Source: Scenedesmus sp. PABB004 (taxonomy: Eukaryota). Taken from it: a stretch of DNA of 20,915 bases. How positions within the stretch are numbered: position 1 is the first letter of the stretch; each line of letters opens with the position of its first letter. Positions 1 to 20,915 of this stretch are shown in pieces. The notes beneath the pieces are model-generated. The model was not told the DNA's origin and did no database searches. It saw nothing but the letters and a program-made list of their open reading frames with translations. The DNA is taken from assembly GCA_014905635.1 (NCBI GenBank), contig JABVCE010000032.1, positions 310,001 to 330,915 of the forward strand, given 5' to 3'. The translations under genes and the position numbers were made by a program.

Positions 1-73
1 CCCACACTCTCTCTCTGACCTGCCCCCGTCCGTGTGCTTGATGCCGCCCGCCCACAACGCGCGTGCGGTGCAG

Positions 74-166
74 GTGGCAAACGAGGGTGCCTGCACCACC
101 GACACTGCCTGCGGGAGCGGCCTGTGCGCAGACACCAACAACGACAACACCAAGGACACCTGCAAG
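74..166 (+). CDS. Representative internal exon (unit 1), 93 bp, phase 0-0: VANEGACTTDTACGSGLCADTNNDNTKDTCK
   Basis: Preceded by TGCAG (69-73) and followed by GTTGGT (167-172). Length is divisible by 3. Cys spacing C-x5-C-x4-C-x11-C. Confidence 0.8.
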
Positions 167-3100
167 GTTGGTTGCGTGCGCATGCGCGGTAGCAGCGCTG
201 CGTGCACTTGTCGCACGTGCCGCACCGCAAGCGAGCAGCGACAGCTGGCATCCAACACTGCCACCAACACCTCCTCACCCACACTCTCTCTCTTCCTGAC
301 CTGCCCCCGTCCGTGCGCTCGACACCGTCGCCCACAACGCGCGTGCGGTGCAGGTGGCAAACGGGGGTGCCTGCACCACCGACACTGCCTGCGAGAGCGG
401 CCTGTGCGCAGACACCAACAACGACAACACCAAGGACACCTGCAAGGTTGGTTGCGTGCGCGTGCGCGGTAGCAGCGCTGCGTGCACTTGTCGCACGTGC
501 CGCACCGCAAGCGAGCAGCGACAGCTGGCATCCAACACTGCCACCAACACCTCCTCACCCACACTCTCTCTCTTCCTGACCTGCCCCCGTCCGTGCGCTC
601 GACACCGTCGCCCACAACGCGCGTGCGGTGCAGGTGGCAAACGGGGGTGCCTGCACCACCGACACTGCCTGCGAGAGCGGCCTGTGCGCAGACACCAACA
701 ACGACAACACCAAGGACACCTGCAAGGTTGGTTGCGTGCGCGTGCGCGGTAGCAGCGCTGCGTGCACTTGTCGCACGTGCCGCACCGCAAGCGAGCAGCG
801 ACAGCTGGCATCCAACACCGCCACCAACACCTCCTCACCCACACTCTCTCTCTTCCTGACCTGCCCCCGTCCGTGCGCTCGACACCGTCGCCCACAACGC
901 GCGTGCGGTGCAGGTGGCAAACGGGGGTGCCTGCACCACCGACACTGCCTGCGGGAGCGGCCTGTGCGCAGACACCAACAACGACAACACCAAGGACACC
1001 TGCAAGGTTGGTTGCGTGCGCGTGCGCGGTAGCAGCGCTGCGTGCACTTGTCGCACGTGCCGCACCGCAAGCGAGCAGTGAGAGCTGGCATCCAACACCG
1101 CTACCACCACCACCACCTCGCCCACACTCTCTCTCTTCCTGACCTGCCCCCGTCCGTGCGCTCGATGCCGCCCGCCCACAACGCGCGTGCGGTGCAGGTG
1201 GCAAACGGGGGTGCCTGCACCACCGACACTGCCTGCGGGAGCGGCCTGTGCGCAGACACCAACAACGACAACACCAAGGACACCTGCAAGGTTGGTTGCG
1301 TGCGCGTGCGCGGTAGCAGCGCTGCGTGCACTTGTCGCACGTGCCACACCGCAAGCGAGCAGCGACAGCTGGCATCCAACACTGCCACCAACACCTCCTC
1401 ACCCACACTCTCTCTCTTCCTGACCTGCCCCCGTCCGTGCGCTCGACACCGTCGCCCACAACGCGCGTGCGGTGCAGGTGGCAAACGGGGGTGCCTGCAC
1501 CACCGACACTGCCTGCGAGAGCGGCCTGTGCGCAGACACCAACAACGACAACACCAAGGACACCTGCAAGGTTGGTTGCGTGCGCGTGCGCGGTAGCAGC
1601 GCTGCGTGCACTTGTCGCACGTGCCGCACCGCAAGCGAGCAGCGACAGCTGGCATCCAACACCGCCACCAACACCTCCTCACCCACACTCTCTCTCTTCC
1701 TGACCTGCCCCCGTCCGTGCGCTCGATGCCGCCCGCCCACAACGCGCGTGCGGTGCAGGTGGCAAACGGGGGTGCCTGCACCACCGACACTGCCTGCGAG
1801 AGCGGCCTGTGCGCAGACACCAACAACGACAACACCAAGGACACCTGCAAGGTTGGTTGCGTGCGCGTGCGCGGTAGCAGCGCTGCGTGCACTTGTCGCA
1901 CGTGCCGCACCGCAAGCGAGCAGCGACAGCTGGCATCCAACACTGCCACCAACACCTCCTCACCCACACTCTCTCTCTTCCTGACCTGCCCCCGTCCGTG
2001 CGCTTCCCCACAACGCGCGTGCGGTGCAGGTGGCAAACGGGGGTGCCTGCACCACCGACACTGCCTGCGGGAGCGGCCTGTGCGCAGACACCAACAACGA
2101 CAACACCAAGGACACCTGCAAGGTTGGTTGCGTGCGCGTGCGCGGTAGCAGCGCTGCGTGCACTTGTCGCACGTGCCGCACCGCAAGCGAGCAGCAACAG
2201 CTGGCATCCAACACTGCCACCAACACCTCCTCACCCACACTCTCTCTCTTCCTGACCTGCCCCCGTCCGTGCGCTCGACACCGTCGCCCACAACGCGCGT
2301 GCGGTGCAGGTGGCAAACGGGGGTGCCTGCACCACCGACACTGCCTGCGGGAGCGGCCTGTGCGCAGACACCAACAACGACAACACCAAGGACACCTGCA
2401 AGGTTGGTTGCGTGCGCGTGCGCGGTAGCAGCGCTGCGTGCACTTGTCGCACGTGCCGCACCGCAAGCGAGCAGCGACAGCTGGCATCCAACACTGCCAC
2501 CAACACCTCCTCACCCACACTCTCTCACTGACCTGCCCCCGTCCGTGTGCTTGATGCCGCCCGCCCACAACGCGCGTGCGGTGCAGGTGGCAAACGGGGG
2601 TGCCTGCACCACCGACACTGCCTGCGGGAGCGGCCTGTGCGCAGACACCAACAACGACAACACCAAGGACACCTGCAAGGTTGGTTGCGTGCGCGTGCGC
2701 GGTAGCAGCGCTGCGTGCACTTGTCGCACGTGCCGCACCGCAAGCGAGCAGCAACAGCTGGCATCCAACACTGCCACCAACACCTCCTCACCCACACTCT
2801 CTCTCTTCCTGACCTGCCCCCGTCCGTGCGCTCGACACCGTCGCCCACAACGCGCGTGCGGTGCAGGTGGCAAACGGGGGTGCCTGCACCACCGACACTG
2901 CCTGCGAGAGCGGCCTGTGCGCAGACACCAACAACGACAACACCAAGGACACCTGCAAGGTTGGTTGCGTGCGCGTGCGCGGTAGCAGCGCTGCGTGCAC
3001 TTGTCGCACGTGCCGCACCGCAAGCGAGCAGCGACAGCTGGCATCCAACACTGCCACCAACACCTCCTCACCCACACTCTCTCTCTTCCTGACCTGCCCC

Positions 3101-6100
3101 CGTCCGTGCGCTCGACACCGCCCGCCCACAACGCGCGTGCGGTGCAGGTGGCAAACGGGGGTGCCTGCACCACCGACACTGCCTGCGGGAGCGGCCTGTG
3201 CGCAGACACCAACAACGACAACACCAAGGACACCTGCAAGGTTGGTTGCGTGCGCGTGCGCGGTAGCAGCGCTGCGTGCACTTGTCGCACGTGCCACACC
3301 GCAAGCGAGCAGCGACAGCTGGCATCCAACACTGCCACCAACACCTCCTCACCCACACTCTCTCTCTCCCTGACCTGCCCCCGTCCGTGCGCTCGACACC
3401 GCCCGCCCACAACGCGCGTGCGGTGCAGGTGGCAAACGGGGGTGCCTGCACCACCGACACTGCCTGCGGGAGCGGCCTGTGCGCAGACACCAACAACGAC
3501 AACACCAAGGACACCTGCAAGGTTGGTTGCGTGCGCGTGCGCGGTAGCAGCGCTGCGTGCACTTGTCGCACGTGCCGCACCGCAAGCGAGCAGCGACAGC
3601 TGGCATCCAACACTGCCACCAACACTTCCTCACCCACACTCTCTCTCTTCCTGACCTGCCCCCGTCCGTGCGCTCGATGCCGCCCGCCCACAACGCGCGT
3701 GCGGTGCAGGTGGCAAACGAGGGTGCCTGCACCACCGACACTGCCTGCGGGAGCGGCCTGTGCGCAGACACCAACAACGACAACACCAAGGACACCTGCA
3801 AGGTTGGTTGCGTGCGCGTGCGCGGTAGCAGCGCTGCGTGCACTTGTCGCACGTGCCGCACCGCAAGCGAGCAGCGACAGCTGGCATCCAACACTGCCAC
3901 CAACACCTCCTCACCCACACTCTCTCTCTTCCTGACCTGCCCCCGTCCGTGCGCTCGACACCGCCCGCCCACAACGCGCGTGCGGTGCAGGTGGCAAACG
4001 GGGGTGCCTGCACCACCGACACTGCCTGCGGGAGCGGCCTGTGCGCAGACACCAACAACGACAACACCAAGGACACCTGCAAGGTTGGTTGCGTGCGCGT
4101 GCGCGGTAGCAGCGCTGCGTGCACTTGTCGCACGTGCCGCACCGCAAGCGAGCAGCGACAGCTGGCATCCAACACTGCCACCAACACCTCCTCACCCACA
4201 CTCTCTCTCTTCCTGACCTGCCCCCGTCCGTGCGCTCGACACCGCCCGCCCACAACGCGCGTGCGGTGCAGGTGGCAAACGGGGGTGCCTGCACCACCGA
4301 CACTGCCTGCGGGAGCGGCCTGTGCGCAGACACCAACAACGACAACACCAAGGACACCTGCAAGGTTGGTTGCGTGCGCGTGCGCGGTAGCAGCGCTGCG
4401 TGCACTTGTCGCACGTGCCGCACCGCAAGCGAGCAGCGACAGCTGGCATCCAACACTGCCACCAACACCTCCTCACCCACACTCTCTCTCTTCCTGACCT
4501 GCCCCCGTCCGTGCGCTCGACACCGCCCGCCCACAACGCGCGTGCGGTGCAGGTGGCAAACGGGGGTGCCTGCACCACCGACACTGCCTGCGGGAGCGGC
4601 CTGTGCGCAGACACCAACAACGACAACACCAAGGACACCTGCAAGGTTGGTTGCGTGCGCGTGCGCGGTAGCAGCGCTGCGTGCACTTGTCGCACGTGCC
4701 GCACCGCAAGCGAGCAGCGACAGCTGGCATCCAACACTGCCACCAACACCTCCTCACCCACACTCTCTCTCTTCCTGACCTGCCCCCGTCCGTGCGCTCG
4801 ATGCCGCCCGCCCACAACGCGCGTGCGGTGCAGGTGGCAAACGGGGGTGCCTGCACCACCGACACTGCCTGCGGGAGCGGCCTGTGCGCAGACACCAACA
4901 ACGACAACACCAAGGACACCTGCAAGGTTGGTTGCGTGCGCGTGCGCGGTAGCAGCGCTGCGTGCACTTGTCGCACGTGCCGCACCGCAAGCGAGCAGCG
5001 ACAGCTGGCATCCAACACTGCCACCAACACCTCCTCACCCACACTCTCTCTCTTCCTGACCTGCCCCCGTCCGTGCGCTCGACACCGCCCGCCCACAACG
5101 CGCGTGCGGTGCAGGTGGCAAACGGGGGTGCCTGCACCACCGACACTGCCTGCGGGAGCGGCCTGTGCGCAGACACCAACAACGACAACACCAAGGACAC
5201 CTGCAAGGTTGGTTGCGTGCGCGTGCGCGGTAGCAGCGCTGCGTGCACTTGTCGCACGTGCCGCACCGCAAGCGAGCAGCGACAGCTGGCATCCAACACT
5301 GCCACCAACACCTCCTCACCCACACTCTCTCTCTTCCTGACCTGCCCCCGTCCGTGCGCTCGACACCGCCCGCCCACAACGCGCGTGCGGTGCAGGTGGC
5401 AAACGGGGGTGCCTGCACCACCGACACTGCCTGCGGGAGCGGCCTGTGCGCAGACACCAACAACGACAACACCAAGGACACCTGCAAGGTTGGTTGCGTG
5501 CGCGTGCGCGGTAGCAGCGCTGCGTGCACTTGTCGCACGTGCCGCACCGCAAGCGAGCAGCGACAGCTGGCATCCAACACTGCCACCAACACCTCCTCAC
5601 CCACACTCTCTCTCTTCCTGACCTGCCCCCGTCCGTGCGCTCGATGCCGCCCGCCCACAACGCGCGTGCGGTGCAGGTGGCAAACGGGGGTGCCTGCACC
5701 ACCGACACTGCCTGCGGGAGCGGCCTGTGCGCAGACACCAACAACGACAACACCAAGGACACCTGCAAGGTTGGTTGCGTGCGCGTGCGCGGTAGCAGCG
5801 CTGCGTGCACTTGTCGCACGTGCCGCACCGCAAGCGAGCAGCGACAGCTGGCATCCAACACTGCCACCAACACCTCCTCACCCACACTCTCTCTCTTCCT
5901 GACCTGCCCCCGTCCGTGCGCTCGACACCGCCCGCCCACAACGCGCGTGCGGTGCAGGTGGCAAACGGGGGTGCCTGCACCACCGACACTGCCTGCGAGA
6001 GCGGCCTGTGCGCAGACACCAACAACGACAACACCAAGGACACCTGCAAGGTTGGTTGCGTGCGCGTGCGCGGTAGCAGCGCTGCGTGCACTTGTCGCAC

Positions 6101-9100
6101 GTGCCGCACCGCAAGCGAGCAGCGACAGCTGGCATCCAACACTGCCACCAACACCTCCTCACCCACACTCTCTCTCTTCCTGACCTGCCCCCGTCCGTGC
6201 GCTCGATGCCGCCCGCCCACAACGCGCGTGCGGTGCAGGTGGCAAACGGGGGTGCCTGCACCACCGACACTGCCTGCGGGAGCGGCCTGTGCGCAGACAC
6301 CAACAACGACAACACCAAGGACACCTGCAAGGTTGGTTGCGTGCGCGTGCGCGGTAGCAGCGCTGCGTGCACTTGTCGCACGTGCCGCACCGCAAGCGAG
6401 CAGCGACAGCTGGCATCCAACACTGCCACCAACACCTCCTCACCCACACTCTCTCTCTTCCTGACCTGCCCCCGTCCGTGCGCTCGACACCGCCCGCCCA
6501 CAACGCGCGTGCGGTGCAGGTGGCAAACGAGGGTGCCTGCACCACCGACACTGCCTGCGGGAGCGGCCTGTGCGCAGACACCAACAACGACAACACCAAG
6601 GACACCTGCAAGGTTGGTTGCGTGCGCGTGCGCGGTAGCAGCGCTGCGTGCACTTGTCGCACGTGCCGCACCGCAAGCGAGCAGCGACAGCTGGCATCCA
6701 ACACTGCCACCAACACCTCCTCACCCACACTCTCTCTCTCCCTGACCTGCCCCCGTCCGTGCGCTCGCTTCCCCACAACGCGCGTGCGGTGCAGGTGGCA
6801 AACGGGGGTGCCTGCACCACCGACACTGCCTGCGGGAGCGGCCTGTGCGCAGACACCAACAACGACAACACCAAGGACACCTGCAAGGTTGGTTGCGTGC
6901 GCGTGCGCGGTAGCAGCGCTGCGTGCACTTGTCGCACGTGCCGCACCGCAAGCGAGCAGCGACAGCTGGCATCCAACACTGCCACCAACACCTCCTCACC
7001 CACACTCTCTCTCTTCCTGACCTGCCCCCGTCCGTGCGCTCGATGCCGCCCGCCCACAACGCGCGTGCGGTGCAGGTGGCAAACGGGGGTGCCTGCACCA
7101 CCGACACTGCCTGCGGGAGCGGCCTGTGCGCAGACACCAACAACGACAACACCAAGGACACCTGCAAGGTTGGTTGCGTGCGCGTGCGCGGTAGCAGCGC
7201 TGCGTGCACTTGTCGCACGTGCCGCACCGCAAGCGAGCAGCGACAGCTGGCATCCAACACTGCCACCAACACCTCCTCACCCACACTCTCTCTCTTCCTG
7301 ACCTGCCCCCGTCCGTGCGCTCGACACCGCCCGCCCACAACGCGCGTGCGGTGCAGGTGGCAAACGGGGGTGCCTGCACCACCGACACTGCCTGCGGGAG
7401 CGGCCTGTGCGCAGACACCAACAACGACAACACCAAGGACACCTGCAAGGTTGGTTGCGTGCGCGTGCGCGGTAGCAGCGCTGCGTGCACTTGTCGCACG
7501 TGCCGCACCGCAAGCGAGCAGCGACAGCTGGCATCCAACACTGCCACCAACACCTCCTCACCCACACTCTCTCTCTTCCTGACCTGCCCCCGTCCGTGCG
7601 CTCGACACCGCCCGCCCACAACGCGCGTGCGGTGCAGGTGGCAAACGAGGGTGCCTGCACCACCGACACTGCCTGCGGGAGCGGCCTGTGCGCAGACACC
7701 AACAACGACAACACCAAGGACACCTGCAAGGTTGGTTGCGTGCGCGTGCGCGGTAGCAGCGCTGCGTGCACTTGTCGCACGTGCCGCACCGCAAGCGAGC
7801 AGCGACAGCTGGCATCCAACACTGCCACCAACACCTCCTCACCCACACTCTCTCTCTTCCTGACCTGCCCCCGTCCGTGCGCTCGACACCGCCCGCCCAC
7901 AACGCGCGTGCGGTGCAGGTGGCAAACGGGGTGCCTGCACCACCGACACTGCCTGCGGGAGCGGCCTGTGCGCAGACACCAACAACGACAACACCAAGGA
8001 CACCTGCAAGGTTGGTTGCGTGCGCGTGCGCGGTAGCAGCGCTGCGTGCACTTGTCGCACGTGCCGCACCGCAAGCGAGCAGCGACAGCTGGCATCCAAC
8101 ACTGCCACCAACACCTCCTCACCCACACTCTCTCTCTCCCTGACCTGCCCCCGTCCGTGCGCTTCCCCACAACGCGCGTGCGGTGCAGGTGGCAAACGAG
8201 GGTGCCTGCACCACCGACACTGCCTGCGGGAGCGGCCTGTGCGCAGACACCAACAACGACAACACCAAGGACACCTGCAAGGTTGGTTGCGTGCGCGTGC
8301 GCGGTAGCAGCGCTGCGTGCACTTGTCGCACGTGCCGCACCGCAAGCGAGCAGCGACAGCTGGCATCCAACACTGCCACCAACACCTCCTCACCCACACT
8401 CTCTCTCTTCCTGACCTGCCCCCGTCCGTGCGCTCGATGCCGCCCGCCCACAACGCGCGTGCGGTGCAGGTGGCAAACGGGGGTGCCTGCACCACCGACA
8501 CTGCCTGCGGGAGCGGCCTGTGCGCAGACACCAACAACGACAACACCAAGGACACCTGCAAGGTTGGTTGCGTGCGCGTGCGCGGTAGCAGCGCTGCGTG
8601 CACTTGTCGCACGTGCCGCACCGCAAGCGAGCAGCGACAGCTGGCATCCAACACTGCCACCAACACCTCCTCACCCACACTCTCTCTCTCCCTGACCTGC
8701 CCCCGTCCGTGCGCTCGACACCGCCCGCCCACAACGCGCGTGCGGTGCAGGTGGCAAACGAGGGTGCCTGCACCACCGACACTGCCTGCGGGAGCGGCCT
8801 GTGCGCAGACACCAACAACGACAACACCAAGGACACCTGCAAGGTTGGTTGCGTGCGCGTGCGCGGTAGCAGCGCTGCGTGCACTTGTCGCACGTGCCGC
8901 ACCGCAAGCGAGCAGCGACAGCTGGCATCCAACACTGCCACCAACACCTCCTCACCCACACTCTCTCTCTTCCTGACCTGCCCCCGTCCGTGCGCTCGAT
9001 GCCGCCCGCCCACAACGCGCGTGCGGTGCAGGTGGCAAACGAGGGTGCCTGCACCACCGACACTGCCTGCGGGAGCGGCCTGTGCGCAGACACCAACAAC

Positions 9101-12100
9101 GACAACACCAAGGACACCTGCAAGGTTGGTTGCGTGCGCGTGCGCGGTAGCAGCGCTGCGTGCACTTGTCGCACGTGCCGCACCGCAAGCGAGCAGCGAC
9201 AGCTGGCATCCAACACTGCCACCAACACCTCCTCACCCACACTCTCTCTCTCCCTGACCTGCCCCCGTCCGTGCGCTCGACACCGCCCGCCCACAACGCG
9301 CGTGCGGTGCAGGTGGCAAACGAGGGTGCCTGCACCACCGACACTGCCTGCGGGAGCGGCCTGTGCGCAGACACCAACAACGACAACACCAAGGACACCT
9401 GCAAGGTTGGTTGCGTGCGCGTGCGCGGTAGCAGCGCTGCGTGCACTTGTCGCACGTGCCGCACCGCAAGCGAGCAGCGACAGCTGGCATCCAACACTGC
9501 CACCAACACCTCCTCACCCACACTCTCTCTCTCCCTGACCTGCCCCCGTCCGTGCGCTTCCCCACAACGCGCGTGCGGTGCAGGTGGCAAACGGGGGTGC
9601 CTGCACCACCGACACTGCCTGCGAGAGCGGCCTGTGCGCAGACACCAACAACGACAACACCAAGGACACCTGCAAGGTTGGTTGCGTGCGCGTGCGCGGT
9701 AGCAGCGCTGCGTGCACTTGTCGCACGTGCCGCACCGCAAGCGAGCAGCGACAGCTGGCATCCAACACCGCCACCAACACCTCCTCACCCACACTCTCTC
9801 TCTTCCTGACCTGCCCCCGTCCGTGCGCTCGATGCCGCCCGCCCACAACGCGCGTGCGGTGCAGGTGGCAAACGGGGGTGCCTGCACCACCGACACTGCC
9901 TGCGGGAGCGGCCTGTGCGCAGACACCAACAACGACAACACCAAGGACACCTGCAAGGTTGGTTGCGTGCGCGTGCGCGGTAGCAGCGCTGCGTGCACTT
10001 GTCGCACGTGCCGCACCGCAAGCGAGCAGCGACAGCTGGCATCCAACACTGCCACCAACACCTCCTCACCCACACTCTCTCTCTTCCTGACCTGCCCCCG
10101 TCCGTGCGCTCGACACCGTCGCCCACAACGCGCGTGCGGTGCAGGTGGCAAACGGGGGTGCCTGCACCACCGACACTGCCTGCGAGAGCGGCCTGTGCGC
10201 AGACACCAACAACGACAACACCAAGGACACCTGCAAGGTTGGTTGCGTGCGCGTGCGCGGTAGCAGCGCTGCGTGCACTTGTCGCACGTGCCGCACCGCA
10301 AGCGAGCAGCGACAGCTGGCATCCAACACTGCCACCAACACCTCCTCACCCACACTCTCTCTCTTCCTGACCTGCCCCCGTCCGTGCGCTCGACACCGCC
10401 GCCCACAACGCGCGTGCGGTGCAGGTGGCAAACGGGGGTGCCTGCACCACCGACACTGCCTGCGAGAGCGGCCTGTGCGCAGACACCAACAACGACAACA
10501 CCAAGGACACCTGCAAGGTTGGTTGCGTGCGCGTGCGCGGTAGCAGCGCTGCGTGCACTTGTCGCACATACCGCACCGCAAGCGAGCAGCGACAGCTGGC
10601 ATCCAACACCGCCACCAACACCTCCTCACCCACACTCTCTCTCTTCCTGACCTGCCCCCGTCCGTGCGCTCGATGCCGCCCGCCCACAACGCGCGTGCGG
10701 TGCAGGTGGCAAACGGGGGTGCCTGCACCACCGACACTGCCTGCGGGAGCGGCCTGTGCGCAGACACCAACAACGACAACACCAAGGACACCTGCAAGGT
10801 TGGTTGCGTGCGCGTGCGCGGTAGCAGCGCTGCGTGCACTTGTCGCACGTGCCGCACCGCAAGCGAGCAGCGACAGCTGGCATCCAACACTGCCACCAAC
10901 ACCTCCTCACCCACACTCTCTCTCTTCCTGACCTGCCCCCGTCCGTGCGCTCGACACCGTCGCCCACAACGCGCGTGCGGTGCAGGTGGCAAACGGGGGT
11001 GCCTGCACCACCGACACTGCCTGCGAGAGCGGCCTGTGCGCAGACACCAACAACGACAACACCAAGGACACCTGCAAGGTTGGTTGCGTGCGCGTGCGCG
11101 GTAGCAGCGCTGCGTGCACTTGTCGCACGTGCCGCACCGCAAGCGAGCAGCGACAGCTGGCATCCAACACTGCCACCAACACCTCCTCACCCACACTCTC
11201 TCTCTTCCTGACCTGCCCCCGTCCGTGCGCTCGACACCGTCGCCCACAACGCGCGTGCGGTGCAGGTGGCAAACGGGGGTGCCTGCACCACCGACACTGC
11301 CTGCGAGAGCGGCCTGTGCGCAGACACCAACAACGACAACACCAAGGACACCTGCAAGGTTGGTTGCGTGCGCGTGCGCGGTAGCAGCGCTGCGTGCACT
11401 TGTCGCACATACCGCACCGCAAGCGAGCAGCAACAGCTGGCATCCAACACTGCCACCAACACCTCCTCACCCACACTCTCTCTCTTCCTGACCTGCCCCC
11501 GTCCGTGCGCTCGACACCGCCCGCCCACAACGCGCGTGCGGTGCAGGTGGCAAACGGGGGTGCCTGCACCACCGACACTGCCTGCGGGAGCGGCCTGTGC
11601 GCAGACACCAACAACGACAACACCAAGGACACCTGCAAGGTTGGTTGCGTGCGCGTGCGCGGTAGCAGCGCTGCGTGCACTTGTCGCACGTGCCACACCG
11701 CAAGCGAGCAGCGACAGCTGGCATCCAACACTGCCACCAACACTTCCTCACCCACACTCTCTCTCTTCCTGACCTGCCCCCGTCCGTGCGCTCGATGCCG
11801 CTCGCCCACAACGCGCGTGCGGTGCAGGTGGCAAACGAGGGTGCCTGCACCACCGACACTGCCTGCGGGAGCGGCCTGTGCGCAGACACCAACAACGACA
11901 ACACCAAGGACACCTGCAAGGTTGGTTGCGTTCGCGTGCGCGGTAGCAGCGCTGCGTGCACTTGTCGCACGTGCCGCACCGCAAGCGAGCAGCGACAGCT
12001 GGCATCCAACACTGCCACCAACACTTCCTCACCCACACTCTCTCTCTTCCTGACCTGCCCCCGTCCGTGCGCTCGATGCCGCCCGCCCACAACGCGCGTG

Positions 12101-15100
12101 CGGTGCAGGTGGCAAACGAGGGTGCCTGCACCACCGACACTGCCTGCGGGAGCGGCCTGTGCGCAGACACCAACAACGACAACACCAAGGACACCTGCAA
12201 GGTTGGTTGCGTGCGCGTGCGCGGTAGCAGCGCTGCGTGCACTTGTCGCACATACCGCACCGCAAGCGAGCAGCAACAGCTGGCATCCAACACCGCCACC
12301 AACACCTCCTCACCCACACTCTCTCTCTCCCTGACCTGCCCCCGTCCGTGCGCTCGACACCGCCCGCCCACAACGCGCGTGCGGTGCAGGTGGCAAACGA
12401 GGGTGCCTGCACCACCGACACTGCCTGCGGGAGCGGCCTGTGCGCAGACACCAACAACGACAACACCAAGGACACCTGCAAGGTTGGTTGCGTGCGCGTG
12501 CGCGGTAGCAGCGCTGCGTGCACTTGTCGCACATACCGCACCGCAAGCGAGCAGCAACAGCTGGCATCCAACACCGCCACCAACACCTCCTCACCCACAC
12601 TCTCTCTCTTCCTGACCTGCCCCCGTCCGTGCGCTCGACACCGCCCGCCCACAACGCGCGTGCGGTGCAGGTGGCAAACGAGGGTGCCTGCACCACCGAC
12701 ACTGCCTGCGGGAGCGGCCTGTGCGCAGACACCAACAACGACAACACCAAGGACACCTGCAAGGTTGGTTGCGTGCGCGTGCGCGGTAGCAGCGCTGCGT
12801 GCACTTGTCGCACGTGCCGCACCGCAAGCGAGCAGCGACAGCTGGCATCCAACACCGCCACCAACACCTCCTCACCCACACTCTCTCTCTCCCTGACCTG
12901 CCCCCGTCCGTGCGCTCGACACCGCCCGCCCACAACGCGCGTGCGGTGCAGGTGGCAAACGGGGGTGCCTGCACCACCGACACTGCCTGCGGGAGCGGCC
13001 TGTGCGCAGACACCAACAACGACAACACCAAGGACACCTGCAAGGTTGGTTGCGTGCGCGTGCGCGGTAGCAGCGCTGCGTGCACTTGTCGCACGTGCCG
13101 CACCGCAAGCGAGCAGCGACAGCTGGCATCCAACACTGCCACCAACACCTCCTCACCCACACTCTCTCTCTTCCTGACCTGCCCCCGTCCGTGCGCTCGA
13201 CACCGCCCGCCCACAACGCGCGTGCGGTGCAGGTGGCAAACGGGGGTGCCTGCACCACCGACACTGCCTGCGGGAGCGGCCTGTGCGCAGACACCAACAA
13301 CGACAACACCAAGGACACCTGCAAGGTTGGTTGCGTGCGCGTGCGCGGTAGCAGCGCTGCGTGCACTTGTCGCACATACCGCACCGCAAGCGAGCAGCGA
13401 CAGCTGGCATCCAACACTGCCACCAACACCTCCTCACCCACACTCTCTCTCTTCCTGACCTGCCCCCGTCCGTGCGCTCGACACCGCCCGCCCACAACGC
13501 GCGTGCGGTGCAGGTGGCAAACGAGGGTGCCTGCACCACCGACACTGCCTGCGGGAGCGGCCTGTGCGCAGACACCAACAACGACAACACCAAGGACACC
13601 TGCAAGGTTGGTTGCGTGCGCGTGCGCGGTAGCAGCGCTGCGTGCACTTGTCGCACGTGCCGCACCGCAAGCGAGCAGCGACAGCTGGCATCCAACACTG
13701 CCACCAACACCTCCTCACCCACACTCTCTCTCTTCCTGACCTGCCCCCGTCCGTGCGCTCGACACCGCCCGCCCACAACGCGCGTGCGGTGCAGGTGGCA
13801 AACGGGGGTGCCTGCACCACCGACACTGCCTGCGGGAGCGGCCTGTGCGCAGACACCAACAACGACAACACCAAGGACACCTGCAAGGTTGGTTGCGTGC
13901 GCGTGCGCGGTAGCAGCGCTGCGTGCACTTGTCGCACATACCGCACCGCAAGCGAGCAGCAACAGCTGGCATCCAACACCGCCACCAACACCTCCTCACC
14001 CACACTCTCTCTCTCCCTGACCTGCCCCCGTCCGTGCGCTCGACACCGCCCGCCCACAACGCGCGTGCGGTGCAGGTGGCAAACGGGGGTGCCTGCACCA
14101 CCGACACTGCCTGCGGGAGCGGCCTGTGCGCAGACACCAACAACGACAACACCAAGGACACCTGCAAGGTTGGTTGCGTGCGCGTGCGCAGTAACAGCGC
14201 TGCGTGCACTTGTCGCACGTGCCGCACTGAAGCGAGCAGCGACAGCTGGCATCCAACACTGCCACCAACACCTCCTCACCCACACTCTCTCTCTTCCTGA
14301 CCTGCCCCCGTCCGTGCGCTCGACACCGCCCGCCCACAACGCGCGTGCGGTGCAGGTGGCAAACGGGGGTGCCTGCACCACCGACACTGCCTGCGGGAGC
14401 GGCCTGTGCGCAGACACCAACAACGACAACACCAAGGACACCTGCAAGGTTGGTTGCGTGCGCGTGCGCGGTAGCAGCGCTGCGTGCACTTGTCGCACGT
14501 GCCGCACCGCAAGCGAGCAGCGACAGCTGGCATCCAACACTGCCACCAACACCTCCTCACCCACACTCTCTCTCTCCCTGACCTGCCCCCGTCCGTGCGC
14601 TTCCCCACAACGCGCGTGCGGTGCAGGTGGCAAACGAGGGTGCCTGCACCACCGACACTGCCTGCGAGAGCGGCCTGTGCGCAGACACCAACAACGACAA
14701 CACCAAGGACACCTGCAAGGTTGGTTGCGTGCGCGTGCGCGGTAGCAGCGCTGCGTGCACTTGTCGCACGTGCCGCACCGCAAGCGAGCAGCAACAGCTG
14801 GCATCCAACACCGCCACCAACACCTCCTCACCCACACTCTCTCTCTCCCTGACCTGCCCCCGTCCGTGCGCTCGACACCGCCCGCCCACAACGCGCGTGC
14901 GGTGCAGGTGGCAAACGAGGCTGCCTGCACCACCGACACTGCCTGCGGGAGCGGCCTGTGCGCAGACACCAACAACGACAACACCAAGGACACCTGCAAG
15001 GTTGGTTGCGTGCGCGTGCGCGGTAGCAGCGCTGCGTGCACTTGTCGCACGTGCCGCACCGCAAGCGAGCAGCGACAGCTGGCATCCAACACTGCCACCA

Positions 15101-18100
15101 ACACCTCCTCACCCACACTCTCTCTCTTCCTGACCTGCCCCCGTCCGTGCGCTCGACACCGCCCGCCCACAACGCGCGTGCGGTGCAGGTGGCAAACGGG
15201 GGTGCCTGCACCACCGACACTGACTGCGGGAGCGGCCTGTGCGCAGACACCAACAACGACAACACCAAGGACACCTGCAAGGTTGGTTGCGTGCGCGTGC
15301 GCGGTAGCAGCGCTGCGTGCACTTGTCGCACGTGCCGCACCGCAAGCGAGCAGCGACAGCTGGCATCCAACACTGCCACCAACACCTCCTCACCCACACT
15401 CTCTCTCTCCCTGACCTGCCCCCGTCTGTGCGCTTCCCCACAACGCGCGTGCGGTGCAGGTGGCAAACGAGGGTGCCTGCACCACCGACACTGCCTGCGA
15501 GAGCGGCCTGTGCGCAGACACCAACAACGACAACACCAAGGACACCTGCAAGGTTGGTTGCGTGCGCGTGCGCGGTAGCAGCGCTGCGTGCACTTGTCGC
15601 ACGTGCCGCACCGCAAGCGAGCAGCAACAGCTGGCATCCAACACCGCCACCAACACCTCCTCACCCACACTCTCTCTCTCCCTGACCTGCCCCCGTCCGT
15701 GCGCTCGACACCGCCCGCCCACAACGCGCGTGCGGTGCAGGTGGCAAACGGGGGTGCCTGCACCACCGACACTGCCTGCGGGAGCGGCCTGTGCGCAGAC
15801 ACCAACAACGACAACACCAAGGACACCTGCAAGGTTGGTTGCGTGCGCGTGCGCGGTAGCAGCGCTGCGTGCACTTGTCGCACGTGCCGCACCGCAAGCG
15901 AGCAGCGACAGCTGGCATCCAACACTGCCACCAACACCTCCTCACCCACACTCTCTCTCTTCCTGACCTGCCCCCGTCCGTGCGCTCGACACCGCCCGCC
16001 CACAACGCGCGTGCGGTGCAGGTGGCAAACGGGGGTGCCTGCACCACCGACACTGCCTGCGGGAGCGGCCTGTGCGCAGACACCAACAACGACAACACCA
16101 AGGACACCTGCAAGGTTGGTTGCGTGCGCGTGCGCGGTAGCAGCGCTGCGTGCACTTGTCGCACATACCGCACCGCAAGCGAGCAGCGACAGCTGGCATC
16201 CAACACCGCCACCAACACCTCCTCACCCACACTCTCTCTCTTCCTGACCTGCCCCCGTCCGTGCGCTCGACACCGCCCGCCCACAACGCGCGTGCGGTGC
16301 AGGTGGCAAACGGGGGTGCCTGCACCACCGACACTGCCTGCGGGAGCGGCCTGTGCGCAGACACCAACAACGACAACACCAAGGACACCTGCAAGGTTGG
16401 TTGCGTGCGCGTGCGCGGTAGCAGCGCTGCGTGCACTTGTCGCACATACCGCACCGCAAGCGAGCAGCGACAGCTGGCATCCAACACCGCCACCAACACC
16501 TCCTCACCCACACTCTCTCTCTTCCTGACCTGCCCCCGTCCGTGCGCTTCCCCACAACGCGCGTGCGGTGCAGGTGGCAAACGAGGGTGCCTGCACCACC
16601 GACACTGCCTGCGAGAGCGGCCTGTGCGCAGACACCAACAACGACAACACCAAGGACACCTGCAAGGTTGGTTGCGTGCGCGTGCGCGGTAGCAGCGCTG
16701 CGTGCACTTGTCGCACGTGCCGCACCGCAAGCGAGCAGCGACAGCTGGCATCCAACACTGCCACCAACACCTCCTCACCCACACTCTCTCTCTTCCTGAC
16801 CTGCCCCCGTCCGTGCGCTCGACACCGCCCGCCCACAACGCGCGTGCGGTGCAGGTGGCAAACGGGGGTGCCTGCACCACCGACACTGCCTGCGGGAGCG
16901 GCCTGTGCGCAGACACCAACAACGACAACACCAAGGACACCTGCAAGGTTGGTTGCGTGCGCGTGCGCGGTAGCAGCGCTGCGTGCACTTGTCGCACATA
17001 CCGCACCGCAAGCGAGCAGCGACAGCTGGCATCCAACACCGCCACCAACACCTCCTCACCCACACTCTCTCTCTCCCTGACCTGCCCCCGTCTGTGCGCT
17101 TCCCCACAACGCGCGTGCGGTGCAGGTGGCAAACGAGGGTGCCTGCACCACCGACACTGCCTGCGGGAGCGGCCTGTGCGCAGACACCAACAACGACAAC
17201 ACCAAGGACACCTGCAAGGTTGGTTGCGTGCGCGTGCGCGGTAGCAGCGCTGCGTGCACTTGTCGCACGTGCCGCACCGCAAGCGAGCAGCGACAGCTGG
17301 CATCCAACACTGCCACCAACACCTCCTCACCCACACTCTCTCTCTCCCTGACCTGCCCCCGTCCGTGCGCTCGACACCGCCCGCCCACAACGCGCGTGCG
17401 GTGCAGGTGGCAAACGGGGGTGCCTGCACCACCGACACTGCCTGCGGGAGCGGCCTGTGCGCAGACACCAACAACGACAACACCAAGGACACCTGCAAGG
17501 TTGGTTGCGTGCGCGTGCGCGGTAGCAGCGCTGCGTGCACTTGTCGCACATACCGCACCGCAAGCGAGCAGCGACAGCTGGCATCCAACACCGCCACCAA
17601 CACCTCCTCACCCACACTCTCTCTCTTCCTGACCTGCCCCCGTCCGTGCGCTCGACACCGCCCGCCCACAACGCGCGTGCGGTGCAGGTGGCAAACGGGG
17701 GTGCCTGCACCACCGACACTGCCTGCGGGAGCGGCCTGTGCGCAGACACCAACAACGACAACACCAAGGACACCTGCAAGGTTGGTTGCGTGCGCGTGCG
17801 CGGTAGCAGCGCTGCGTGCACTTGTCGCACATACCGCACCGCAAGCGAGCAGCGACAGCTGGCATCCAACACCGCCACCAACACCTCCTCACCCACACTC
17901 TCTCTCTTCCTGACCTGCCCCCGTCCGTGCGCTTCCCCACAACGCGCGTGCGGTGCAGGTGGCAAACGAGGGTGCCTGCACCACCGACACTGCCTGCGAG
18001 AGCGGCCTGTGCGCAGACACCAACAACGACAACACCAAGGACACCTGCAAGGTTGGTTGCGTGCGCGTGCGCGGTAGCAGCGCTGCGTGCACTTGTCGCA

Positions 18101-20553
18101 CGTGCCGCACCGCAAGCGAGCAGCGACAGCTGGCATCCAACACTGCCACCAACACCTCCTCACCCACACTCTCTCTCTTCCTGACCTGCCCCCGTCCGTG
18201 CGCTCGACACCGCCCGCCCACAACGCGCGTGCGGTGCAGGTGGCAAACGGGGGTGCCTGCACCACCGACACTGCCTGCGGGAGCGGCCTGTGCGCAGACA
18301 CCAACAACGACAACACCAAGGACACCTGCAAGGTTGGTTGCGTGCGCGTGCGCGGTAGCAGCGCTGCGTGCACTTGTCGCACATACCGCACCGCAAGCGA
18401 GCAGCGACAGCTGGCATCCAACACCGCCACCAACACCTCCTCACCCACACTCTCTCTCTTCCTGACCTGCCCCCGTCCGTGCGCTTCCCCACAACGCGCG
18501 TGCGGTGCAGGTGGCAAACGAGGGTGCCTGCACCACCGACACTGCCTGCGAGAGCGGCCTGTGCGCAGACACCAACAACGACAACACCAAGGACACCTGC
18601 AAGGTTGGTTGCGTGCGCGTGCGCGGTAGCAGCGCTGCGTGCACTTGTCGCACATACCGCACCGCAAGCGAGCAGCAACAGCTGGCATCCAACACCGCCA
18701 CCAACACCTCCTCACCCACACTCTCTCTCTCCCTGACCTGCCCCCGTCCGTGCGCTCGACACCGCCCGCCCACAACGCGCGTGCGGTGCAGGTGGCAAAC
18801 GGGGGTGCCTGCACCACCGACACTGCCTGCGGGAGCGGCCTGTGCGCAGACACCAACAACGACAACACCAAGGACACCTGCAAGGTTGGTTGCGTGCGCG
18901 TGCGCGGTAGCAGCGCTGCGTGCACTTGTCGCACGTGCCGCACCGCAAGCGAGCAGCGACAGCTGGCATCCAACACTGCCACCAACACCTCCTCACCCAC
19001 ACTCTCTCTCTTCCTGACCTGCCCCCGTCCGTGCGCTCGACACCGCCCGCCCACAACGCGCGTGCGGTGCAGGTGGCAAACGGGGGTGCCTGCACCACCG
19101 ACACTGCCTGCGGGAGCGGCCTGTGCGCAGACACCAACAACGACAACACCAAGGACACCTGCAAGGTTGGTTGCGTGCGCGTGCGCGGTAGCAGCGCTGC
19201 GTGCACTTGTCGCACGTGCCGCACCGCAAGCGAGCAGCGACAGCTGGCATCCAACACTGCCACCAACACCTCCTCACCCACACTCTCTCTCTCCCCGACC
19301 TGCCCCCGTCCGTGCGCTCGACGCCGCCCGCCCACAACGCGCGTGCGGTGCAGGTGGCAAACGAGGGTGCCTGCACCACCGACACTGCCTGCGAGAGCGG
19401 CCTGTGCGCAGACACCAACAACGACAACACCAAGGACACCTGCAAGGTTGGTTGCGTGCGCGTGCGCGGTAGCAGCGCTGCGTGCACTTGTCGCACGTGC
19501 CGCACCGCAAGCGAGCAGCGACAGCTGGCATCCAACACCGCCACCAACACCTCCTCACCCACACTCTCTCTCTCCCTGACCTGCCCCCGTCCGTGCGCTT
19601 CCCCACAACGCGCGTGCGGTGCAGGTGGCAAACGAGGGTGCCTGCACCACCGACACTGCCTGCGGGAGCGGCCTGTGCGCAGACACCAACAACGACAACA
19701 CCAAGGACACCTGCAAGGTTGGTTGCGTGCGCGCGCGCGGTAGCAGCGCTGCGTGCACTTGTCGCACGTGCCGCACCGCAAGCGAGCAGCGACAGCTGGC
19801 ATCCAACACTGCCACCAACACCTCCTCACCCACACTCTCTCTCTCCCTGACCTGCCCCCGTCCGTGTGCTTCCCCACAACGCGCGTGCGGTGCAGGTGGC
19901 AAACGAGGGTGCCTGCACCACCGACACTGCCTGCGGGAGCGGCCTGTGCGCAGACACCAACAACGACAACACCAAGGACACCTGCAAGGTTGGTTGCGTG
20001 CGCGTGCGCGGTAGCAGCGCTGCGTGCACTTGTCGCACGTGCCGCACCGCAAGCGAGCAGCAACAGCTGGCATCCAACACTGCCACCAACACCTCCTCAC
20101 CCACACTCTCTCTCTTCCTGACCTGCCCCCGTCCGTGCGCTCGATGCCGCCCGCCCACAACGCGCGTGCGGTGCAGGTGGCAAACGAGGGTGCCTGCACC
20201 ACCGACACTGCCTGCGAGAGCGGCCTGTGCGCAGACACCAACAACGACAACACCAAGGACACCTGCAAGGTTGGTTGCGTGCGCGTGCGCGGTAGCAGCG
20301 CTGCGTGCACTTGTCGCACGTGCCGCACCGCAAGCGAGCAGCGACAGCTGGCATCCAACACTGCCACCAACACCTCCTCACCCACACTCTCTCTCTCCCT
20401 GACCTGCCCCCGTCCGTGCGCTCGACACCGCCCGCCCACAACGCGCGTGCGGTGCAGGTGGCAAACGGGGGTGCCTGCACCACCGACACTGCTTGCGAGA
20501 GCGGCCTGTGCGCAGACACCAACAACGACAACACCAAGGATACTTGCAGTTGA
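74..20553 (+). CDS. 5'-partial multi-exon gene (74 exons of 93 bp visible) for a giant cysteine-rich tandem-repeat protein; 31-aa unit VAN[G/E]GACTTDTAC[G/E]SGLCADTNNDNTKDTCK, ending ...KDTCS*
   Basis: Each unit reads GTGCAG|GTGGCAAAC...ACCTGCAAG|GTTGGT. Exon starts: 74,354,634,914,1198,1478,1759,2030,2310,2587,2867,3148,3429,3710,3991,4272,4553,4834,5115,5396,5677,5958,6239,6520,6795,7076,7357,7638,7919,8189,8470,8751,9032,9313,9584,9865,10145,10425,10706,10986,11266,11547,11828,12109,12390,12671,12952,13233,13514,13795,14076,14356,14627,14908,15189,15460,15741,16022,16303,16574,16855,17126,17407,17688,17959,18240,18511,18792,19073,19354,19625,19896,20177,20458. 27 of 31 codons end in G/C. 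All indels but one (exon at 7919, 92 bp) fall in the introns. In-frame TGA at 20551-20553. No transcript evidence is available; the splicing is inferred. Confidence 0.8.
167..353 (+). other. Representative spliceosomal (GT-AG) intron, 187 bp, repeated in every unit
   Basis: Donor AAG|GTTGGT; CT-rich tract 284-296; branch-site match CTGAC at 296-300; no AG dinucleotide from 245 to 351; acceptor GTGCAG| ending at 353. Confidence 0.8.
20458..20553 (+). CDS. Terminal coding exon: VANGGACTTDTACESGLCADTNNDNTKDTCS*
   Basis: Same acceptor as the other units. Differs by GCC>GCT (20493), GAC>GAT (20541) and ACC>ACT (20544), all silent in this frame. AAG|GTTGG is replaced by AGT TGA. Confidence 0.8.
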   Translation: MANGGACTTDTACESGLCADTNNDNTKDTCS

Positions 20554-20710
20554 TTCTCTGTTTATCACGGGTTGTTGGTCTGAGAGAAGCACCTTTTGGT
20601 GGTTCGAACATGAGCTGCCATCTCAAGCAGTTGGTTGCTTGGCTTTTTTTCAAGCGACACTTACCGTATGTGTAATAACACCAAACTCTTTACGACCAGC
20701 CCCACAGCCA
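20554..20710 (+). other. Unique spacer between the array and the telomere; putative 3' UTR
   Basis: Non-repetitive and visibly more T/A-rich than the array. Begins immediately after the TGA and contains a T7 run and TGTAA. Confidence 0.65.
20671..20675 (+). promoter_or_regulatory. Putative polyadenylation signal TGTAA (UGUAA, chlorophyte type)
   Basis: TGTAA lies 117 bp after the stop codon and is absent from the array. UGUAA is the established poly(A) signal of Chlamydomonas and many chlorophytes. A 5-mer can also occur by chance. Confidence 0.55.
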
Positions 20711-20915
20711 GGTTTAGGGTTTAGGGTGTAGGGTGTAGGGTGTAGGTTTTTAGGGTGTAGGGTTTAGGGTTTAGGTTTTAGGGTTTTTAGGTTTTAGGGT
20801 TTAGGTTTTAGGGTTTAGGGTTTAGGCTTAGGGTTTAGGTTTAGGGTTTAGGGTTTAGGGTTTAGGGTTTAGGGTTTAGGGTTTAGGGTTTAGGGTTTAG
20901 GGTTTAGGGTTTAGG
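20711..20915 (+). repeat. Telomeric repeat (TTTAGGG)n with the G-rich strand pointing outward; right-hand chromosome end
   Basis: Degenerate units (TGTAGGG, TTTAGG, TTTTAGGG, CTTAGGG) over 20711-20839, then perfect TTTAGGG from 20840 to the window end. Confidence 0.98.

Follow-up and report, generated by a model that had tools for sequence, protein, structure and literature searches.

A telomere-side tandem array of exon-like and intron-like blocks in Scenedesmus sp. PABB004

Is a tandem array that lies beside a telomere a satellite, or can it be the body of a gene? The question is raised by a stretch of 20,915 nucleotides (nt) from Scenedesmus sp. PABB004 (GenBank assembly GCA_014905635.1, contig JABVCE010000032.1, positions 310,001 to 330,915 of the forward strand), which was analyzed as a whole and is called the window below. 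It holds an array with a unit of 281 base pairs (bp), followed by a telomere. An earlier interpretation of the letters alone, designated here the sequence-only reading, proposed that this array is a gene composed of cassettes of an exon and an intron, which together encode a giant repeat protein. Repeat masking strips such arrays before gene finding. A locus that is both a satellite and a gene, if there is one, would thus be invisible to repeat-masked annotation.

We describe the anatomy, composition and variation statistics of the array, which are direct observations, and weigh the explanations that they allow. The array very probably originated by amplification of a coding exon together with its intron. 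The features of the sequence also incline us, though only slightly, to regard it as a gene that is transcribed and spliced today and would encode a giant Cys-rich repeat protein.

Anatomy of the array

Tandem Repeats Finder gave one array at positions 3..20548, with a period of 281, 73.6 copies, 97% matches and 1% indels, and a 7-nt array from 20711 onward, which is the telomere. The anchor sequence GCAGGTGGCAAAC occurs 74 times in the window, so the proposed number of at least 74 cassettes of about 281 bp holds. Successive anchors are spaced by 281 (n = 48), 280 (n = 11), 271 (n = 10), and 284, 277, 275 or 270 bp (n = 1 each); the short 271-bp units return at regular steps. The G+C content of the array is 62-72%. 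Each unit is divided into a 93-nt exon-like block, which follows CAG and precedes GT, and a spacer, or intron-like block, of about 188 nt. The 74 exon-like blocks start at positions 74, 354, 634 and so on up to 20458 (Table 1). Since the window opens in the middle of a unit, the array extends upstream, and any gene would have its 5' end outside the window.

Table 1. Features of the window (positions are counted from its first letter; aa, amino acids)
Feature	Position	Strand	Remarks
Partial intron-like block, 3' part	1..73	+	Matches the last 73 nt of later spacers; GTGCAG, then the first anchor
First whole exon-like block, 93 nt	74..166	+	31 aa, VANEGAC...DTCK; representative of 74
First whole intron-like block, 187 nt	167..353	+	Starts with GTTGGT, has a C/T tract with CTGAC, ends with GTGCAG; representative of 73
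Unit identical to the consensus (1 of 11)	3991..4271	+	Exon-like block 3991-4083, intron-like block 4084-4271
Exon-like block 29, 92 nt	7919..8010	+	Run of four G, not five; either the spliced frame shifts here or the assembly erred in a homopolymer
Final intron-like block, 188 nt	20270..20457	+	
Final exon-like block	20458..20553	+	TGA at 20551-20553; donor lost
Unique flank, 157 nt	20554..20710	+	G+C 0.465; TGTAA at 20671-20675; candidate 3' untranslated region
Telomere, TTTAGGG-type	20711..20915	+	G-rich strand 5' to 3' up to the window end; period 7, 29.1 copies, 88% matches

The exon-like block has the sequence VANGGACTTDTACGSGLCADTNNDNTKDTCK. In the frame with regularly placed Cys codons it encodes a module of 31 aa, which is acidic and rich in Thr, Asp and Asn. 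The Cys pattern is C-x5-C-x4-C-x11-C, then x7 to the next unit. The module has four Cys. The three codon positions of this frame contain 14, 19 and 27 G/C of 31, in agreement with the 27/31 third positions and the regular Cys motif of the sequence-only reading. A difference of at least 13 between the highest and the lowest count has P = 0.0023 (50,000 shuffles). Asn, Asp, Cys and Lys account for 15 codons of the consensus exon, and each of these has C or G as its third base. Among the 72 intact exons of the array there are six peptide variants (36, 16, 11, 7, 1 and 1 copies). The block had been described as fixed in length. This is true for 73 of the 74 blocks; unit 29 (Table 1) has lost one G from a run of five.

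All 73 spacers end with the acceptor sequence GTGCAG, and all 73 begin at a donor AAG/GTTGGT (the slash marks the block border; the 73rd donor is counted once the 92-nt exon before it is allowed for). Thus the CAG and GT flanks ascribed to the 93-bp block are present in every case. Spacer lengths are 188 (n = 48), 187 (n = 11), 178 (n = 11), and 191, 184 or 182 nt (n = 1 each). Length variation had been placed in the intron-like block only, and the range of 178-191 nt agrees with that except for exon 29, which varies as well. The spacer has a C/T-rich tract, and in 72 of 73 units this tract includes CTGAC, the A of which is 55 nt ahead of the next exon-like block. The last 108 nt upstream of the acceptor are free of AG (P = 0.0067, mononucleotide shuffle). 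Both the CTGAC branch motif and the AG-exclusion zone that had been suggested are therefore found. The pyrimidine tract and the AG-free zone are strand-specific.

Some other properties of the cassette borders and the spacer were noted. Both borders of a cassette read AG/GT throughout 74-20550, namely CAG/GTGGCA and AAG/GTTGGT. The RNA fold of the intron at 4084-4271 is no better than that of shuffled sequences (z = -0.22 and +0.52 for the two strands). Read in the frame of the exon, the spacer (e.g., 4084-4271) is open for 62 codons and includes C-x-C-x2-C. A 93-nt stretch that starts at approximately unit column 116 has 13, 25 and 22 G/C by codon position, which is nearly of exon strength. 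Some of the spacer could once have been coding, or GCN-like microrepeats could produce the periodicity.

The end of the array is informative. The final block ends with ...TGC AGT TGA, i.e., with the in-frame stop that had been reported for the last unit. Likeness to the consensus ends at 20548, two bases short of the predicted exon end at 20550. The following bases, GTTGATT, still resemble the donor GTTGGTT, and likeness is then lost, within about 12 bases past the predicted donor. It is the former donor region that provides the TGA, so the stop comes one codon after the exon end. The last exon differs from the consensus in three private third-position C>T changes (GCC>GCT, GAC>GAT and ACC>ACT) and in the terminal AAG>AGT. 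All three private changes are synonymous (Ala, Asp and Thr). By simple arithmetic, the chance that three of three changes are at third positions is (1/3)^3 = 0.037.

Past the stop, G+C falls from 0.62-0.72 to 0.44-0.50. The poly(A) signal of green algae is TGTAA, and this word is found at 20671, 118 nt past the stop and 40 nt short of the telomere; its occurrence by chance in 157 nt is estimated at about 1 in 5. The 3' end, with the stop and a unique flank, is within the window. As far as sequence can tell, an array that ends near an exon end, with a stop and with synonymous-only divergence at its edge, has the expected look of the last exon of a gene. The telomere has its G-rich strand in the orientation of a true chromosome end. 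Its inner copies (20711-20800) are variants, namely GGGTGTA, TTTTAGG and one GGCTTAG, and are followed by regular TTTAGGG.

Four public sequencing runs, which belong to two studies, include contigs that carry the unit with 95-99+% likeness and cover parts of 20177-20517. We guess that these four runs are DNA; three are labelled freshwater metagenome, and one is possibly the source of the assembly. The unit therefore exists as DNA in nature. One contig of 311 nt circles back on itself after 281 nt. All eight listed differences between the public runs and the window fall at columns that are also variable inside the array. The flank 20519-20712 is not covered by the four runs, which has no bearing on expression.

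Chance, other exon models and the spliced frame

An exon-like block, splice-like edges and a stop could in principle arise by chance in GC-rich, stop-poor sequence, and the array would then be a plain non-coding satellite. Several properties of the unit weigh in this direction and against a gene. A unit has just two stop codons on the plus strand and one on the minus strand over all frames, and open frames of 90-578 aa exist on both strands. The exon-like block has no stop in any of the three frames, and an antisense frame (frame 1 of the minus strand) has an equal bias of third-position G/C (26/30), so that the argument of the sequence-only reading from this bias is weaker than it was put. 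We enumerated all AG...GT pairs in the consensus unit whose exon would be periodic, free of stops and frame-keeping. This gave 61 models on the plus strand and 186 on the minus strand. Therefore GT and AG borders together with a length divisible by three are no evidence alone, and the argument that the sequence-only reading had built on them is likewise weaker than it was put. The searches described below brought up no homologue, and no Pfam family reached its threshold.

Nevertheless, we consider the plain satellite very unlikely. The codon periodicity and the AG-free 108 nt, each improbable in shuffled sequence, coincide on the same strand and the same 93-nt block. All 15 two-fold codons end with C or G, and the four Cys are evenly placed. 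Further, no more than 3 nt separate the end of the array from the predicted end of the exon, a stop follows, and the last exon has the three synonymous private changes. The exon model of the sequence-only reading is set apart from the other models by coinciding periodicity, four Cys, strand-specific intron signals and the array end.

The array could also be a real gene with a different exon. Alternative donors GTGCGC lie in frame 9 and 15 nt downstream of the proposed one; the frame is open through both, and they would give exons of 102 or 108 nt with VGC or VGCVR added. Donors of the GTGCG type are common in GC-rich green algae, and T at position +3, as in GTTGGT, is atypical of spliceosomal donors. 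These points count against the 93-nt exon. On the other hand, AAG/GTTGGT agrees with the general consensus for donors in more positions than TGC/GTGCGC does. An exon of 102 or 108 nt would bring an odd fifth Cys, and homology of the array to its surroundings stops at the first donor. A gene on the minus strand would have the biased frame 1 in its favor. The tract that should consist of pyrimidines would there consist of purines, and five of six Leu would be encoded by TTG. Leu usage dominated by TTG is atypical of GC-rich genomes. Taken together, a gene with any of these other exon models has a slim chance at best.

Two more models of the unit were rejected. A swapped model with a 188-nt exon and a 93-nt intron fails because 188 is not a multiple of three and stops are present in two of the three frames. 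An array of structured RNA is contradicted by the absence of Rfam matches at E <= 1 (19000-20915) and of tRNAs in the window, and by the lack of excess fold stability.

To obtain the spliced model, exon-like blocks were joined by a script. The joined frame 0 shifts at exon 29 and then stays open into the telomere, where it meets a stop at 20729, so that the TGA is missed; the shifted frame is Pro/Thr/Ala-rich and has poor codon bias. The sequence-only reading had claimed one transcript from which 73 introns are removed to give about 2,290 aa. As assembled, the window does not encode this product, since the frame is broken at exon 29. If exon 29 is left out, the frame runs for 2,263 aa to the TGA; Thr makes up 19% of the residues, Asp, Asn, Ala and Cys 13% each, and Gly 11%. 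The missing base may be an assembly error in the G run or a real defect, or the exon may be skipped. An error is possible because runs of G are prone to mistakes in long-read assemblies. Unit 51 (14076-14355) has lost a single base in the same manner, at alignment column 155 in a short run of C within its spacer, and this also fits a homopolymer assembly error. The 18-mer of the exon-exon junction is absent from the genomic window, as expected.

Present-day gene or inert satellite

The 73 full units were aligned. The mean pairwise identity is 99.0% for exons and 96.5% for introns, which agrees with the claim that introns are nearly as homogeneous as exons. Variant events, counted without a complex block at alignment columns 250-261, number 5 in exons and 26 in introns (P = 0.020). 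For substitutions the numbers are 4 and 29 (P = 0.006). For indel events they are 1 and 10 (P = 0.077), the intron count being over-split in the complex block. There are 48 distinct sequences among the 73 units. Higher-order blocks are found within 14356-18791 (units 52-67), where unit 56 repeats unit 53 exactly at a lag of 3, and units 63-65 likewise repeat units 58-60 at a lag of 5. Such exact matches show block duplication by unequal exchange.

The complex block lies just upstream of the acceptor (e.g., 20420-20435) and is a hot spot of both length and sequence variants. Here 11-12 units lack 10 nt and about 10 units lack a single nt, and CA and TG occur as linked alternatives. Within the exons, two Gly/Glu sites vary in 24/73 and 18/73 units, and the other two substitutions are singletons. 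The Gly/Glu sites are exon columns 11 and 41, both GGG/GAG in a CGGG context and 30 nt apart. Among the 72 intact exons, 36 have the combination G-G, 16 E-G, 11 G-E and 7 E-E; two more have an extra singleton. Since all four combinations exist, recurrent mutation or very short conversion tracts are needed to explain them.

We searched for relatives of the encoded peptide. The 31-aa unit had two matches in 1.84 billion representatives (HMMER), both of them unrelated repeats that share words like NNDNTKD. For the 50-aa read-through stretch there was no match in a word-index search of proteins of 89-2000 aa and 27-88 aa. Back-translated CADTNNDNTK had no matches in metagenome, viral and prokaryote contigs. 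A looser pattern of the ACGSGLCAD type hit 66 metagenome loci, none of which is alike beyond the pattern. No match exceeded the Pfam gathering threshold; the sole hit was PF11410 (Antifungal_pept) with 15.1 bits against a cut-off of 22, in the last unit only. At the level of sequence the module is therefore an orphan across everything searched. An AlphaFold2 model of a single unit was unusable (mean predicted local distance difference test score, pLDDT, 55.1; predicted template modeling score, pTM, 0.18).

The reading that we prefer is as follows. In a GC-rich eukaryote, one exon-intron cassette of a protein-coding gene would have been tandemly amplified on the plus strand, which is read toward the telomere. 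Each cassette would consist of a phase-0 exon of 93 nt, encoding the acidic four-Cys module of 31 aa, and a GT-AG intron of about 188 nt. The final cassette, its donor lost, would read into TGA and be followed by a short AT-richer 3' flank up to the telomere. Exon and intron would be kept near-identical together while the copy number shifts, the duplicated blocks of 3 and 5 units being instances of this. If the array is transcribed, the spliced mRNA would have a period of 93 nt. All sites have the same AG/GT and the exons are symmetric, so any pairing of a donor and an acceptor would keep the frame, and a ladder of isoforms would be expected. The repeat protein predicted from such an mRNA has at least about 2,260 aa, is rich in disulfides and in Thr, Asp and Asn, and would be secreted or located at the surface. 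We infer transcription, splicing and translation of the array, as well as the location and function of this product, from the features listed above.

The chief alternative is a dead gene or an inert subtelomeric satellite. An exon and an intron of a former gene would have been amplified at the chromosome end and kept uniform by unequal crossing-over, but would no longer yield a working mRNA, and the coding features would simply be inherited. This is possible, though in our judgment unlikely to be the right account. A number of observations speak for it and weigh against a living gene. The array lies beside a telomere, like Sultan and some Subrel arrays, and going by excerpts of PMC8287924 green-algal telomere-side arrays are usually heterochromatic satellites. 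A start codon, a promoter and the 5' end would be beyond the window edge. Exon 29 is frame-broken, the 3- and 5-unit higher-order blocks are typical of satellites, and the peptide has no relative in the searches made.

The variation data belong partly to the same side. All four substitutions in the array exons are non-synonymous and none is synonymous, which is not the pattern of protein-level purifying selection. CpG contexts account for 16 of 25 transitions, as expected of methylated repeats. The CpG observed/expected ratio is 1.11 in the spacer and 0.62 in the exon. Variable CpG positions are 0/12 in the exon and 12/46 in the intron (P = 0.055, borderline); for non-CpG positions the values are 4/81 and 17/142 (P = 0.098, also borderline). 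The lower variation of exons is modest and is in part a CpG mutation effect.

Other observations speak against an inert satellite. Only one of the 74 exons is broken, and the break is within an error-prone G run. Variant events are fewer in exons than in introns, as given above. The private changes of the last exon are all synonymous, and the array end still has its stop codon, its drop in GC and its TGTAA.

The preferred reading can be carried further, to a live "satellite gene" that abuts a telomere and varies the length of its protein in two ways. The spliceosome would pair any donor with any later acceptor, and subtelomeric unequal crossing-over would alter the number of cassettes between cells and strains. 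We regard this idea as speculative and rather improbable. Similarly doubtful is its consequence that the locus produces a length ladder of an orphan, disulfide-rich, possibly Ca-binding surface protein and is a contingency-type surface locus of a microalga.

The outcome matters in either case. If the array is expressed, some algal "subtelomeric satellites" are the bodies of very large genes for surface or wall proteins. It would also be an extreme of exon-intron concerted evolution, with at least 74 cassettes as compared with a handful to dozens in spider silk genes, and a simple system for studying how 73 identical introns are put in order by a spliceosome. Should the array prove not to be expressed, a single exon with its intron has seeded a subtelomeric satellite, which is a concrete origin story for such arrays.

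Comparison with known systems

Weak leads exist for the peptide. In NCBIfam, one unit matched TIGR04201 (Myxo_Cys_RPT) with 13.7 bits and E = 0.053, residues 6-23 being aligned with profile positions 4-22 of 22. The cut-off of this family (25 bits, whole protein) is not reached by single units, which gave 13.7 bits, 10.1 bits (E = 0.69) or no match. A sequence search of PDB gave prokineticin Bv8 at E = 1.2 via GAC..D..CGSG.C. The motif G-A-C-x2-D-x2-C-G-S-G-x-C aligns with Bv8 residues 5-20 and with positions 4-22 of the TIGR04201 profile. The nearest clusters in the ESM Atlas are Cys-rich proteins of Myxococcota labelled Dickkopf_N/EB, with scores of 0.79-0.81, which is a lead-only range. The three weak leads agree in kind, suggesting small disulfide-rich extracellular repeats; all are sub-threshold and indicate membership for none of these families. 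Compared with Myxo_Cys_RPT and the Dickkopf-prokineticin group, the unit has four Cys in 31 aa and an Asp/Asn-rich loop, and with every score below threshold (cosine 0.81) the likeness is a resemblance only.

Many near-identical introns of spliceosomal type in one genome are also known as introners, e.g., in Micromonas (excerpts of PMC3879977 and PMC4540971). Introners are situated in unrelated exons after transposition, whereas the introns of the array are flanked by identical exons, in copies arranged head to tail. Tandem duplication thus explains the near-identical introns. Insertion of introners was rejected for the same facts, all 73 introns lying between the same exon.

The human polyubiquitin gene UBC has dual-specific AG/GT sites at the repeat borders, each able to serve as donor or acceptor, which allow stochastic splicing and an in-frame variable number of repeats (excerpt of PMC10809524). 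The array is like UBC in having AG/GT at both borders of a cassette. The repeats of UBC are contiguous coding units and its "introns" are whole monomers, whereas the array has a separate 188-nt block and its splicing is predicted.

The array lies next to a telomere repeat (20548 and 20711 are its end and the telomere start, respectively), as a subtelomeric satellite does. According to excerpts of PMC8287924, green-algal telomere-side arrays such as Sultan of Chlamydomonas (~850 bp) and Subrel-I of Coccomyxa (166 nt) are species-specific, and Sultan arrays are heterochromatic and untranscribed. Like Sultan and Subrel in the same source, the array is placed between unique DNA and a telomere repeat of 7 or 8 nt. 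These satellites are described there as lacking coding capacity. The array departs from that description, by which alone the two were compared: it has a codon-like block with a four-Cys module, splice-like edges and an end stop.

A parallel is provided by spidroin genes. In the excerpted part of PMC9779670, introns of MaSp2 of the spider Argiope have a mean within-gene identity of 97.6%, repetitive spidroin introns are proposed to promote homogenization by unequal crossing-over, and flagelliform spidroin is cited as an iterated-cassette gene. The array resembles the spidroin genes of that source in its tandem cassettes of a repeat-coding exon and an intron and in its near-identical introns (96.5% as against 97.6% in MaSp2). 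GT donors and AG acceptors are at the same place in every cassette, and the introns are homogenized. Frame-keeping exon length is less clear-cut, with 93 nt in 73 of 74 cases and 92 nt in exon 29, which breaks the frame as assembled. In the open-access literature searched, no algal cassette array of this type was found. Iterated-cassette genes are a known kind; what is new here is the scale (281-bp cassettes, 74 or more of them), together with the orphan module and a position beside the telomere. The cassettes of spidroin genes are far fewer and larger, carry Gly/Ala/Pro motifs, belong to animals and have been shown to be expressed. The array, in contrast, repeats a 31-aa Cys module in cassettes of 281 bp, of which there are at least 74, adjoins a telomere and is a putative gene.

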